29,298 nucleotides of DNA. Source: Anaerolineae bacterium (GTDB lineage: Bacteria > Chloroflexota > Anaerolineae > Anaerolineales > UBA4823). Numbering within the stretch: the stretch's first letter is position 1; the number at the start of each line of letters is the position of its first letter. Position numbers and translations under genes: made by a program. The notes beneath the pieces were generated by a model. The model was given only the letters and a program-made list of their open reading frames with translations. It was not told the DNA's origin and did not search any database. The DNA is taken from contig JBGOYO010000001.1 in NCBI GenBank assembly GCA_041479715.1, positions 1-29,298 on the forward strand. Reading direction: 5' to 3'. Below, one piece after another: positions 2,454-7,532 of this stretch.

Positions 2454-4307
2454 ATGGCTACCAGGAAACCTTCGGATCGTTTAGAACCTGGTGCCATCCT
2501 TCTAGACCGCTACGCCATTCAATATATAGTCGGCGTGGGAGGTATGGGAGCCGTTTATTGCGCCAGGGATCTTCACTTTCCGAATGTAGTCAAACGCGTG
2601 GCGGTTAAAGAAATGGTTAACATCGTGCGGGATCCCGACATTCGCGATACGATCGTCCGCAACTTCGAACGTGAAGCCAATATCCTGGCTACCTTGAACC
2701 ATCCCTGTATTCCTCGCATCTATGACTACTTTACCCAGGATGACCGCTCCTACCTGATCATCGAGTTTATCGATGGCAAGGATTTAGAAACGATCCTGTC
2801 TGAAACCAGTGATTTCCTTGCTGAGGCTCAGGTGCTTAATTGGGCTATCGAGCTGTGCGATGTCATCAGCTACTTGCATAATTACAAGCCGGAGCCGATC
2901 ATCTTTCGGGATATCAAACCCTCCAATATCATGATCAATAACCACGAGCACGTCCAGCTGGTGGATTTTGGTATCGCCAAGACGTTCCAACCCGGTCAGA
3001 AGGGGACCATGATCGGCACCGAAGGCTATTCACCCCCGGAGCAATACAAGGGCGAGAGTTCGCAGCGGGCGGATATCTACGCCTTGGGAGCTACTCTACA
3101 CCATTTGCTAACCCGACGGGACCCTCGCCTGGAACCCCCATTTTCGTTTGATGAGCGCAAAATTCGTACGATCAATCCTGCCATCTCCCCTGAGCTGGAA
3201 GCGGTGATCTATACCTCCCTTGCTTATGATCCTGAGAAACGCTATTCGAGTATTGATGTGATGAAGGAAGCTCTTCTTGCCTCCGCCAAAAAAACCGGGC
3301 TGCTTAATAAGCTTCCGGCTGCCGTCAAGCCTATGTCTCGTGAGACCTCCGAAGTCTCGGCCGCTTGGAAATTTGAGTGCGAAGACGAAATCCGCGGTAC
3401 ACCTGCCTATCATTCTGGGTCGATTTACGTGGGTTCATACGACAACAACCTGTACTCCCTGAATGCTGTCAATGGTGAATTTATCTGGAAGTTTGCCACC
3501 GAGGGAGGCATCACCAGCCGCCCGGCTCCCTTCGAAGGCAATATCTATATTGGCTCCGAAGACCAGCGCCTTTATTGCATCAACATGCGCTCCGGGCAGG
3601 AGCTTTGGTCATACTATTCGAACGGAGCCATCCGTTCATCCCCTTACATAGCTGAAGGTCATGTTTTTATCGGCTCAGATGATGCCTTCCTCCATGCCGT
3701 GAATGCCCAGAGTGGCAGACGAGCCTGGCGGGTGGACGCTGGCTCACCTGTTCGTTCCACACCTTTATTGGTAGGAGAATTGGCCTACTTCGGCACCGAA
3801 GAAGGTGACTTATTCTGTATCGACTTGAGGGGCAATGTTAAATGGCGCTTTAAAGCTAAGCGCGCCCTCACTTCTTCTCCGTCTCATGCCAATGGGGTCA
3901 TCTACATCTGTTCTGTGGACACCTTGCTATACGCACTCGACGCGAAATCGGGTTATATATTATGGCGTTTCCGTATGTCGAAGGCTTCCATCTCCACCCC
4001 ATTCATTGCCGATAATTTTATCTTCACCGGTTCTGTGGATTCTCACATCTACTGCGTCGATATTCATTCCGCCAGGGAAATATGGAATTTCGCCACCGAT
4101 AGCCAGGTTACCAGCTCTCCGCTATCCTATCAGGATTCTGTTTATTGCGGTTCTGTCGATGGCGCCATGTATTGTCTTGAATTCCGTACAGGTCGTTTGC
4201 GCTGGAAATATCAAACTGGGGGGCCAATCACCGGCTCGCCCATTATTGCCAATGATGTGCTCTATTTCGGTTCCAACGATCATAAAATTTATGCCATTGT
4301 TCTATGA
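2454..4307 (+). CDS. Hanks-type Ser/Thr protein kinase with C-terminal PQQ-like (BamB-type) beta-propeller
   Basis: Gly loop GVGGMGAVY, VAVKE, FRDIKPSN, DFG, GTEGYSPPEQ and RADIYALG, followed by 8 Trp-anchored ~40-aa repeats. No transmembrane segment seen. ATG at 2454 chosen; the ORF track starts at TTG 2442. Confidence 0.93.
   Translation: MATRKPSDRLEPGAILLDRYAIQYIVGVGGMGAVYCARDLHFPNVVKRVAVKEMVNIVRDPDIRDTIVRNFEREANILATLNHPCIPRIYDYFTQDDRSYLIIEFIDGKDLETILSETSDFLAEAQVLNWAIELCDVISYLHNYKPEPIIFRDIKPSNIMINNHEHVQLVDFGIAKTFQPGQKGTMIGTEGYSPPEQYKGESSQRADIYALGATLHHLLTRRDPRLEPPFSFDERKIRTINPAISPELEAVIYTSLAYDPEKRYSSIDVMKEALLASAKKTGLLNKLPAAVKPMSRETSEVSAAWKFECEDEIRGTPAYHSGSIYVGSYDNNLYSLNAVNGEFIWKFATEGGITSRPAPFEGNIYIGSEDQRLYCINMRSGQELWSYYSNGAIRSSPYIAEGHVFIGSDDAFLHAVNAQSGRRAWRVDAGSPVRSTPLLVGELAYFGTEEGDLFCIDLRGNVKWRFKAKRALTSSPSHANGVIYICSVDTLLYALDAKSGYILWRFRMSKASISTPFIADNFIFTGSVDSHIYCVDIHSAREIWNFATDSQVTSSPLSYQDSVYCGSVDGAMYCLEFRTGRLRWKYQTGGPITGSPIIANDVLYFGSNDHKIYAIVL
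3366..4304 (+). repeat. Eight protein-level PQQ-like propeller blades within the kinase
   Basis: Blades begin WKFECE, WKFATE, WSYYSN, WRVDAG, WRFKAK, WRFRMS, WNFATD and WKYQTG, each followed by an S/T-P and a (Y/F)xGSxD-like segment at ~40-aa spacing. Confidence 0.85.
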
Positions 4308-4335
4308 AGCGCATTAATTATATTAAGGATCCCTC

Positions 4336-5277
4336 GTGCCATCATTTATAAACCGCTTCTTCCACAGAAAAACATCGCAAGCCCAACCCTCCATACCTGC
4401 TGATACTTCTCCTGCCCAACCCAAGACCGATAGTAGTGAGGTTCTTAGTGGAAAGACGGCAGTAACGCTCCCGGATTCAGCTATGGGAAATCGTCCACTC
4501 GAAACACCTCAAATCATCGTTGGGATCGGTCAGTCTGTTGGCATCCAGCGCGACAGCAACGAAGATTCTATCTTTACCCTGACCTCCAATCTAATTTCCA
4601 ATGGTCGGACGGTCAATTTCGGTCTGTATATCATCGCCGATGGAATGGGCGGGCACGAAAACGGTGAATTAGCCAGCAGCATTGCAGTTAGCCGGCTTTC
4701 AACTCATGTGATCAATACCTTCTTCCTCCCATCAATCTCTGCGACGGACCATCAAATGGATATAACGCTGCAGGAAATAATGCGGGATGGTGTGATAAAC
4801 GCCCATGAAGCTATAAAACAAGCTGCCATGGGTAGTGGGACCACTCTTACTGCGGTTCTTATCCTGGGAGACCAGATGACTATCGCTCACGTCGGTGACA
4901 GCCGCGCCTACTCCATTAATCCTGGTGGTCAGATGCAACTCCTCACCCATGACCATTCCCTGGTTAAACGCCTTGAAGAAATTGGTCAAATCACACCGGC
5001 AGAAGCCTCCGTCCACCCAAAACGCAACCTTCTGTATCGGGCTCTGGGTCAGGGAGACCAGCTGGAGCCAGACATCACCAGTTTATCTGCGTACGAGGGA
5101 TTACAATTGATGTTATGCACCGATGGACTGTGGGGTGCAGTCTCAGAAGATGAATTACGGTCTGTCATCGTATCTTCATCGGAGCCACAAACCGTATGCC
5201 AATTATTAATCGAATCTGCCAACGCCGCTGGCGGTCCAGATAATATATCTGTGATCATTATCCGTATTCCAGGCTAA
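4336..5277 (+). CDS. PP2C/PPM-family Ser/Thr phosphatase (Stp1/PrpC-like) with disordered N-terminal extension
   Basis: [51 protein letters not shown] and GGPDNISV motifs. GTG start. Confidence 0.93.
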
Positions 5278-5282
5278 ACTCT

Positions 5283-6761: not shown

Positions 6762-6763
6762 TC

Positions 6764-7273
6764 ATGATTATTTGTCCGAACTGTGGAAATAAAGAGATGC
6801 CGGGTGCCCTGTTTTGTAAAGAGTGTGGCACCCAATTCGACGCACTCCGCGATCCTACGATGATCATCCCTACCTCCCTTGGCGACCAGCTGCGTGGAAA
6901 AGCGCCGGAGGATGCTGATCACGTGATCCCTCCCACACCAGATGATGCCAAATTATCTTTGTACCTCGTTGAAACCGGTGAGGTGATCCCACTCGAGGGG
7001 TTGACGGAATTCACCTTAGGCAGGTCATCTGAAGACCAGCCCATCTTGCCCGACATTGATCTTGCTCCCTACCGGGCCTATGACTATGGTGTCTCACGTC
7101 TGCACGCTTCCATCCAGCTGAGTCAGCCGTTCGCCTTGCTCGTAGATTTTGGCTCAGCCAATGGGACGTTGCTAAACGGGCAAAAAATGACCCCCAATAA
7201 ACCTTATCCTATCACCCACGGTGATATATTCTCTTTGGGTAAAATGAAAATCCAACTACTTGTAAATCGATGA
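6764..7273 (+). CDS. Zinc-ribbon plus FHA domain protein
   Basis: CPNC...FCKECG zinc ribbon. FHA signature LGRS, VSRLHA, DFGSANGTLLNG, GDIFSLG. ATG at 6764, 2 nt after the upstream stop; TTG at 6758 is an alternative start. Confidence 0.9.
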   Translation: MIICPNCGNKEMPGALFCKECGTQFDALRDPTMIIPTSLGDQLRGKAPEDADHVIPPTPDDAKLSLYLVETGEVIPLEGLTEFTLGRSSEDQPILPDIDLAPYRAYDYGVSRLHASIQLSQPFALLVDFGSANGTLLNGQKMTPNKPYPITHGDIFSLGKMKIQLLVNR

Positions 7274-7289
7274 GAAAGCTGGGATAGAT

Positions 7290-7532
7290 ATGCCATATAC
7301 CATCATTATTCACCCTACAGGAGAAGAACCGATCATTGGCGAGGTGGAAGAATTGCCCAAAACGACCGATTTAATCATAACCATTAATAGCCCACGCCGT
7401 ATTGATGGTAAGGAACTACATTACTTGACGGAAAGTGTCCTCACCGTGATTTGGCCGATAAATCGGTTGAATTTCATCGAAGTATTGCCGACCAAGGCAG
7501 AAGAAGAAATTATTGGCTTCGTCAGAGAGTAA
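7290..7532 (+). CDS. Small hypothetical protein, 80 aa, predicted beta-rich
   Basis: Fills the gap between the FHA gene and the response regulator on the same strand, with GGGA about 6 nt upstream of the ATG. Alternating hydrophobic strands. No motif recognised. Confidence 0.75.
   Translation: MPYTIIIHPTGEEPIIGEVEELPKTTDLIITINSPRRIDGKELHYLTESVLTVIWPINRLNFIEVLPTKAEEEIIGFVRE

Follow-up and report, generated by a model that had tools for sequence, protein, structure and literature searches.

The subject of this report is a gene cluster within a DNA stretch of 29,298 nt, hereafter the window (meaning the whole stretch that was analyzed), from a metagenome-assembled genome of an Anaerolineales bacterium (3.0 Mb, 77% complete). 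Five co-oriented genes encode, in this order, a Ser/Thr kinase with a β-propeller (STK), a phosphatase (PP2C), a protein combining a J domain with a vWA domain (J-vWA), a zinc-ribbon protein with an FHA domain (Zn-FHA), and a protein of 80 residues (s80). An initial annotation of the window had described these genes as tightly packed, with intergenic gaps of 28, 5, 2, and 16 nt, and the open reading frames and their translations bear this out. Its domain calls for the first four products were all confirmed by Pfam, and its view of a self-contained cytoplasmic operon with a writer, an eraser, and a reader, in which the J domain and the MIDAS (metal-ion-dependent adhesion site) of the vWA domain are intact, is supported by Pfam and by the motifs described below. 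As it had also held, no gene product contains a transmembrane-like stretch, the maximum 19-residue Kyte-Doolittle mean being 1.38. The same annotation ended the unit at position 7532, with the s80 gene; in Anaerolineae the gene cluster extends through two further genes, which encode response regulators of the OmpR and NarL types, to position 9006. The features of the locus are as follows.

2377..2384, + strand: -10 promoter element GCTATAAT, invariant in 14/14 genus-level upstream regions
2403..2417, + strand: Shine-Dalgarno sequence GGAGGAG (2403-2409) and CTG codon at 2415, from the upstream alignment
2415..4307, + strand: Hanks-type Ser/Thr kinase with a PQQ-type β-propeller (Pfam, NCBIfam, alignment)
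4336..5277, + strand: PP2C-family Ser/Thr phosphatase (Stp1/IreP-like), the eraser (Pfam, NCBIfam)
5283-6761, + strand: J-vWA gene (Pfam DnaJ and VWA)
5283..5486, + strand: J domain of J-vWA, residues 1-68, with HPD at 33-35 (Pfam DnaJ)
5517..6761, + strand: ArnB-like body of J-vWA, with the K-Y-G-T-R-x-L motif (AlphaFold, Foldseek, VIA, PDB profile)
6603..6722, + strand: codons of the candidate phospho-acceptors T441 (6603-6605) and T480 (6720-6722), from conservation
6764..7273, + strand: ArnA-like Zn-FHA reader (Pfam, PDB profile match)
7290..7532, + strand: 80-residue protein s80 (Chloroflexota-restricted family, Sm/LSm-like model)
7542..8360, + strand: OmpR-family response regulator (Pfam Response_reg and Trans_reg_C)
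8341..9006, + strand: NarL/LuxR-family response regulator (Pfam Response_reg and GerE), overlapping the end of the OmpR-type gene

The kinase gene had initially been started at ATG 2454. Aligning 14 upstream regions at the genus level showed that this ATG is not conserved, that a CTG at 2415, located 5-8 nt past the Shine-Dalgarno sequence, is invariant in 14/14 sequences, and that the Leu codon at 2442 takes synonymous forms (CTG/TTG/CTA/TTA). For these three reasons, the kinase most likely starts at the non-canonical CTG 2415, upstream of which an in-frame TAA is present at 2397. The promoter before the kinase gene was recognized through its conservation; a scan for terminator and promoter consensus sequences gave counts no better than those in shuffled sequences.

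The kinase domain (Pfam Pkinase, E 4e-41) retains K52, D153, and the DFG motif, and its catalytic residues do not vary among 25 orthologues. Pfam assigns the C-terminal 320 residues to a PQQ-type propeller (PQQ/β-propeller of the BamB type, E 2e-67), and no zinc-ribbon or oligonucleotide/oligosaccharide-binding (OB) family was found in the kinase at Pfam E 0.01 or better. The top NCBIfam match was AfsK (NF053615), with 206.8 bits versus a cut-off of 1300, so the equivalog level was missed; the likeness to AfsK that had been proposed from the sequence holds for the kinase-plus-propeller layout, which is common to both. The phosphatase (Pfam PP2C, E 8e-17; NCBIfam Stp1_PP2C, 213 bits versus a cut-off of 230) directly follows the kinase in 74/75 loci of a named sample of 80 Anaerolineales loci, for which counts are given over those with enough flanking sequence. 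Several relatives carry a second, short Ser/Thr kinase (~360-380 residues) 3-4 kb past the NarL-type regulator (L028:1231-2361, L031:14220-15290, and similar), which is absent from the window, and one family of the order has an extra gene for a kinase-FHA fusion (390 residues; L032:5866-7035, genome G034) between the Zn-FHA and s80 genes.

The third gene product matches Pfam DnaJ (E 3e-22, 78.8 bits, cut-off 27.8) and VWA (E 1e-15). Its J domain keeps the HPD motif at residues 33-35, and the MIDAS residues D127-x-S129-x-S131, T194, and D224 are intact and invariant in the orthologue alignment. In an AlphaFold model with a predicted local distance difference test score (pLDDT) of 88.5 and a predicted template modelling score of 0.87, the J domain is followed by two strands, the vWA domain, six sandwich strands, and four helices, and these elements make up a split β-sandwich (residues 79-107 and 299-392), a MIDAS-containing vWA domain (120-294), and a four-helix bundle (402-482). 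Foldseek matched this model to the Catenulispora vWA protein 4fx5 (E 1.3e-25), to ArnB in the ArnAB complex (8s05, E 1e-24), to an ArnB paralogue (5a8j, E 5.6e-20), and to Sec23/24 (E about 1e-13). The VIA alignments were consistent with this ranking: Z was 33.7 over 388 residues for 4fx5, 30.2 over 367/380 residues for ArnB (8s05_B), and 25.9 for the ArnB paralogue, versus 25 or less over about 175 residues for matches to the vWA domain only. The structural alignment to ArnB runs through the C-terminal bundle, and in a PDB profile search ArnB was the top vWA match of J-vWA (E 1.2e-21). The vWA proteins of the cluster, which range from 417 to 510 residues, share the three-part architecture.

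Two threonines of the helical bundle, T441 and T480, are each Thr in 33/34 vWA proteins from several classes, and T480 lies within an almost invariant K-Y-G-T-R-x-L motif. FHA domains prefer phosphothreonine with a hydrophobic residue at position +3, a preference that T480 fits because it is followed by Leu at +3. T441 and T480 are located in the last helices of the bundle, as are the phosphothreonine sites T353, T363, and T375 of ArnB (PMC12852372), and by this analogy both are candidate phospho-acceptors. T480 was also considered as an FHA ligand in a disordered tail; this idea was set aside, as the model places T480 where a confidently predicted helix ends, and it is kept only in the form of an ArnB-like order-to-disorder transition.

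The Zn-FHA protein comprises a zinc ribbon and an FHA domain in Pfam (E 8e-14), arranged as a C4 zinc ribbon at residues 1-25, a variable linker that contains T32-x-x-I35, and the FHA domain at about 84-165. The zinc ligands C4, C7, C18, and C21 and the phosphothreonine-binding residues G86-R87, S111-R112, H114, and N133 are invariant in 30 sequences. In a PDB profile search, ArnA (5a8i) was the top match (E 7.9e-16), and profile positions 3-162, that is, both domains, were covered; the next-best matches were the FHA domains of GarA, OdhI, and Rv0020c (E about 1e-11 to 1e-12). The Zn-FHA gene lies 2 nt after the J-vWA gene in the window, and the two are adjacent in 70/70 named loci as well as in other classes.

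Since GarA and OdhI come next after ArnA, a switch of their type must be considered, in which Zn-FHA itself would be the main kinase substrate, the phosphothreonine in its linker would be bound by its own FHA domain and thereby release a metabolic or regulatory target, and the vWA protein would be a mere scaffold. The linker does carry a suitable site: T-x-x-I/L/F, 8-14 residues past the zinc ribbon, is present in 24/30 orthologues, versus 11.1 ± 2.6 (maximum 19) in 1000 shuffles. However, ArnA is the better match and is aligned over the zinc ribbon too, the linker Thr is missing in 6/30 orthologues whereas T441 and T480 are each kept in 33/34, and the J-vWA and Zn-FHA genes are lost together in one family, which favors a pair over a free FHA switch. 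We consider such a switch as the main mechanism rather unlikely, and it could in any case coexist with an ArnAB-like one.

ArnA and ArnB form a regulatory module of the archaellum in Sulfolobus acidocaldarius, on which the kinases ArnC and ArnD and the phosphatase PP2A act (PMC6509490, PMC12852372, PMC7472852). The zinc finger of ArnA binds the β-sandwich and helical bundle of unphosphorylated ArnB to give a loose complex (PMC6509490, PMC12852372). The kinase ArnC phosphorylates ArnB on Thr in the final two helices of its bundle (PMC12852372), after which the FHA domain binds phosphorylated ArnB to give a tight complex, a process reversed by PP2A (PMC6509490, PMC12852372). Archaeal arnA and arnB are often co-encoded (PMC4858521). 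On the basis of domain architecture, gene adjacency, and the top solved matches, ArnA-ArnB, and not TerY-P, is the nearest known system to the cluster. The initial annotation had placed the cluster near TerY-P; the vWA protein is of the three-part ArnB type, and in the kinase a propeller takes the C-terminal place that a zinc ribbon or OB fold holds in TerY-P kinases. It had also recognized no named system and had counted a match to a characterized operon as evidence against its view. Such a match exists in part: the Zn-FHA and vWA pair is of the characterized ArnA-ArnB type, which had gone unrecognized.

By analogy with ArnAB, the cluster is probably a Ser/Thr phospho-switch of the housekeeping type that Chloroflexota inherit vertically, with bacterial counterparts of ArnA and ArnB as reader and target. 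The zinc ribbon of the FHA protein would hold the unphosphorylated vWA protein loosely; the operon kinase, with its cytoplasmic propeller as the presumed input domain, would then phosphorylate T441 and T480 in the final bundle helices; the FHA domain would clamp the resulting phosphothreonines to form a tight complex; and PP2C would reset the switch. The Thr-x-x-Ile/Leu motif of the linker may add GarA-like self-inhibition in the FHA protein.

The genomic distribution of the cluster bears on both its inheritance and its function. In an order-level sample of 20 loci spanning 17 families, the order STK-PP2C-JvWA-ZnFHA-s80-RR(OmpR), where RR denotes a response regulator, was found in nearly all loci as far as the contigs reach, usually followed by RR(NarL); the exception was genome G037, in which only a short kinase lies beside the vWA gene. 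In the named sample, STK-PP2C-JvWA was present in 74/75 loci and JvWA-ZnFHA-s80-RR in 70/70, so that the neighborhood conservation proposed as a check by the initial annotation was borne out. The five-gene arrangement, which recurs in order-level, class-level, and named loci with sufficient flanks, is far beyond chance. A profile of s80 detected one copy per genome, in 95/201 class-level and 86/301 phylum-level genomes, and presence was all-or-none within families in both sets. Other classes keep the core STK-PP2C-vWA-ZnFHA-s80 without the response regulators. Reduced forms also occur: family f69 keeps STK-PP2C-s80 and has lost J-vWA and Zn-FHA together, two lineages have STK-s80, and one lineage has ZnFHA-s80. 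The joint loss in f69 suggests that J-vWA and Zn-FHA act as a pair, and because the reduced forms include STK-PP2C-s80 and STK-s80, the kinase and s80 are the most persistent pair.

These patterns also bear on a TerY-P-like (yegIKL-type) role in stress or anti-phage defense, in which the kinase, PP2C, and vWA triad would act as a threat-sensing switch, as had initially been suggested. The triad is present, TerY-P triads are known in conflict systems (PMC10542128), and PADLOC matched the kinase to PD-T4-6 and mad6 and the phosphatase to PDC-M21C. The PADLOC matches are, however, of a generic kind and include none for the vWA protein, the FHA protein, or s80 (the presence of a TerY model in PADLOC being unverified), and no nuclease or other effector is linked. 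Moreover, the vWA protein is ArnB-type rather than TerY-type, and the kinase does not have the C-terminal zinc ribbon or OB fold. Because it is single-copy, syntenic, clade-wide, and all-or-none per family, unlike patchy defense islands, the cluster is a conserved core gene set and not a defense island, and a defense function seems highly improbable.

The fifth product, s80, had no match in Pfam (LSM included), NCBIfam, or PADLOC. Its family numbers 250 representatives among 1.84 billion proteins, and the Atlas shows clusters from Chloroflexota only. In a predicted model (pLDDT 87), five strands form a barrel followed by a short C-terminal helix, and the N-terminal helix is absent. Comparison with Sm/LSm folds gave Z values of 7-8, for which the structure tool warns that a Z under 8 may reflect a merely common arrangement, at a root-mean-square deviation of 1.9-2.5 over ~60 residues; the Foldseek E was middling, at about 1e-2. 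The top fold matches include the protein-binding LSm domains of EDC3, Gemin, and NatC subunits, and in view of these matches and the middling fold score, RNA binding of the Sm type was set aside. The conserved features of s80 are an N-P-R-x-x-D-G-K loop and an acidic C-terminal tail ending in G-F-V-R-E. In the alignment, Ser or Thr is invariant at no position, which speaks for s80 as an adaptor rather than a substrate.

In the loci examined at the order, class, and phylum levels, s80 always adjoins the kinase cluster. Structure prediction of the kinase-s80 complex gave a median interface score (ipSAE, the interaction prediction score from aligned errors) of 0.47 (runs 0.47, 0.76, and 0.37) versus 0.00 for the best control, with at least 87% of contacts agreeing between runs and a partner pLDDT of at least 77. 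The mark used for complexes was reached by 58/80 solved complexes and 2/110 mismatched pairs, and those that reached it at 0.60 or under comprised 7/80 solved complexes and both passing mismatches. The prediction thus lends weak support to kinase-s80 binding, and s80, with its putative Sm-like fold, is most likely a kinase-bound modulator. Two fusions of the propeller with s80 were considered as Rosetta-stone evidence and rejected, P0368 because two Trp codons of the gene are replaced by stops and P0346 because no gene is on record. On a JGI metagenome contig (L171:2975-4849), a kinase-propeller frame is continuous with s80 residues 16-80 and two conserved propeller Trp are stops, probably because the gene is decaying or the contig is rich in errors. 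Family f103 (L082-L084, L089) has weaker s80-like matches (E 1e-10 to 1e-16) in frames of 135-192 residues with no kinase nearby, and these may reflect divergence or fusion of the domain.

Several components are confined largely to Anaerolineae. The J domain is present there and in one other family (f74); it is absent from 6/7 full-cluster loci examined in other classes (4/5 families), where the vWA gene begins at the first sandwich strand. The HPD motif is present in 24/28 class-level orthologues. In the other four (L057, L062, L063, L070), the J helices are kept and HPD is lost, which suggests that these J domains no longer stimulate Hsp70. Because of its absence in most other-class loci and the loss of HPD in 4/28 orthologues, the J domain is an add-on and not the core of the switch; the initial annotation was thus right that the domain is intact in the window and overstated how central it is.

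The OmpR-type regulator gene starts 9-18 nt after s80 and is found behind it in 70/70 named Anaerolineales loci versus 0/7 full-cluster loci of other classes. Its NCBIfam matches were RpaB (221.7 bits), MtrA (220.9 bits), and YycF/WalR (216.5 bits), all below their cut-offs. The NarL-type regulator is 82-95% identical in order-level relatives and is directly adjacent in 27/60 named loci, an Hsp20 gene intervening in most of the rest; an Hsp20 gene directly follows the OmpR-type regulator in 28/60 (L091-L170). Both regulators have canonical receiver residues and Asp pockets, and no histidine kinase is linked. Hsp20 genes between the two regulators are found at L031:10797-11594, where a 105-residue open reading frame without a Pfam family follows, and at L030:5655-6161; the genus of the window has no Hsp20 gene there.

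The J domain together with the frequent Hsp20 gene points to protein-folding stress in Anaerolineae. In these bacteria, the ArnAB-like switch would gain a further layer, with the J domain of the ArnB-like protein coupling the complex to Hsp70, and with the two co-transcribed response regulators, often with Hsp20 between them, as the likely transcriptional output. A broader proposal, possible if doubtful, is that the ArnAB-type switch has been rewired in Anaerolineae as a chaperone-gated stress circuit, in which free DnaK and the s80-tuned propeller kinase would jointly set the FHA-vWA complex, and this complex would control the RpaB/MtrA/WalR-like and NarL-like regulators and Hsp20. More broadly, Zn-FHA and the ArnB-like protein, for which kinship with the Sec23/24 core has been proposed, would be an ancient module of Bacteria and Archaea whose cognate kinase and phosphatase are still adjacent in Chloroflexota.

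In other classes, no common output gene was found: the genes downstream of s80 differ between lineages. At L077:10264-11235, a RodZ-like gene (HTH_25 and RodZ_C) directly follows s80, a single case. A RodZ-like neighbor would suit a module for cell shape or filament integrity that resembled FraH or the action of AfsK on the polar growth machinery, with the ArnB-like protein as a cytoskeletal adaptor. AfsK as the top NCBIfam match of the kinase would also suit it, as would the occurrence of the FraH zinc-ribbon-FHA family among the Atlas neighbors (score 0.94) and the lifestyle of the cluster-carrying lineages, which we take to be largely filamentous. However, the cluster shows no consistent linkage to genes for cell wall, division, or cytoskeleton; the downstream genes vary by class (arginase and a major facilitator superfamily transporter, a phospholipase D-family protein, and RodZ-like only once), and the kinase falls well short of the AfsK cut-off. 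A cell-shape module is therefore unlikely, and since it concerns the output only, it would be compatible with an ArnAB-like mechanism.

In the window, the NarL-type regulator and a DUF4870 gene are set apart by a 9.6-kb transposon (9010-18628) that carries genes for a DDE transposase, panB, a Liv-type ABC transporter, a cyclase, and an aminotransferase. In the same-genus relative L024, which has no transposon, the DUF4870 and glycine-cleavage genes directly follow the NarL-type regulator.

Several points weigh against the proposal of an ArnAB-like switch. Every mechanistic step in it is drawn by analogy with ArnAB. The Pfam family ArnB_C (PF18677 / IPR040929), searched at E up to 10, did not match the bundle of the window protein; it gave E 0.23 in the relative L076, and one Atlas neighbor cluster is annotated as ArnB_C. 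T441 and T480 lie in confidently predicted helices, so an order-to-disorder step would be needed, as has been proposed for ArnB. The enzymes differ in architecture or family from ArnC/ArnD and PP2A, as the operon encodes a propeller-bearing, AfsK-like kinase and a PP2C phosphatase, whereas ArnC is an OB/tetratricopeptide repeat kinase and the archaeal phosphatase is PP2A. The score for kinase-s80 binding is weak. Since many lineages have a degenerate J domain or none, coupling to Hsp70 cannot be essential to the core switch, and the response regulators, which are linked only within Anaerolineae, may be mere neighbors whose histidine kinase is encoded elsewhere.

If the ArnAB-like switch is accepted, the operon has implications beyond Chloroflexota. 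In Sulfolobus, the step by which ArnA-ArnB acts downstream on transcription is unknown (PMC12852372). ArnA-ArnB has so far been a Sulfolobus story, with the kinases and the phosphatase scattered in the genome, whereas Chloroflexota encode the reader-target pair in one operon with a dedicated kinase, phosphatase, and small partner, one class adding DNA-binding regulators and chaperone elements. The Chloroflexota operon thus offers candidates for the input and output steps still missing from ArnA-ArnB. It also shows that the ArnB/Sec23-24-like architecture reaches wider in Bacteria. The J-domain-vWA fusion puts Hsp70 in the place usually held by MoxR ATPases beside vWA adaptors, and s80 defines an 80-residue, putatively Sm-like family that is restricted to Chloroflexota and tied to a propeller kinase.

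Among known systems, the AfsK-KbpA pair of Streptomyces provides a functional precedent for s80: according to PMC6988585 (citing Umeyama and Horinouchi 2001), the small protein KbpA, encoded beside afsK, binds and inhibits AfsK. Both systems have a cytoplasmic PQQ-propeller kinase with a small protein encoded next to it, which in Chloroflexota is a predicted binder. The window kinase is nonetheless far below the AfsK cut-off, and s80 has no detectable similarity to named families; KbpA would be a precedent in function and not a relative. For the vWA protein, Caci_2163 of Catenulispora acidiphila (4fx5) is the top structural match to the whole vWA-sandwich-bundle body; it differs in having no J domain and is an uncharacterized structural-genomics target. 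The ArnB authors had flagged 4fx5 as ArnB-like. In the literature searched, which is incomplete, 4fx5 and a predicted YfbK were the only bacterial ArnB-like structures, and no link between ArnB and Chloroflexota was found.

The FHA protein resembles GarA and OdhI in its canonical phosphothreonine-binding FHA domain and in the Thr-x-x-hydrophobic motif N-terminal to it, and differs in that those proteins have neither a zinc ribbon nor a vWA partner. Cyanobacterial FraH shares the zinc-ribbon-plus-FHA layout; we know of no ArnB-like gene linked to it. With TerY-P (E. coli yegI-yegK-yegL), the cluster has in common a kinase, a PP2C, and a vWA protein encoded together as a proposed phosphorylation switch. 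In PMC10542128 (citing Anantharaman 2012 and Gao 2020), TerY is described as a stand-alone vWA protein and the TerY-P kinase as carrying a zinc ribbon (TerY-C) or an OB fold at its C-terminus. The Chloroflexota cluster has instead a kinase with a C-terminal propeller and a vWA protein of the ArnB type, adds an FHA reader and s80, and is distributed in a clade-wide and syntenic rather than island-like manner.

ArnA-ArnB shares with the cluster the adjacent zinc-ribbon-FHA and vWA genes, which are its top solved matches in sequence for both proteins and in fold for ArnB, and a Hanks-type kinase and a Ser/Thr phosphatase, which act on the pair in archaea and are encoded beside it here. The Chloroflexota version differs in being bacterial, in having its kinase and phosphatase in the same operon, and in having no archaellum to regulate. 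What is new relative to ArnAB is the operon-encoded AfsK-like kinase and PP2C, the Chloroflexota-only s80, and, in Anaerolineae, the J domain, the linked regulators of the response-regulator type, and the linked Hsp20.

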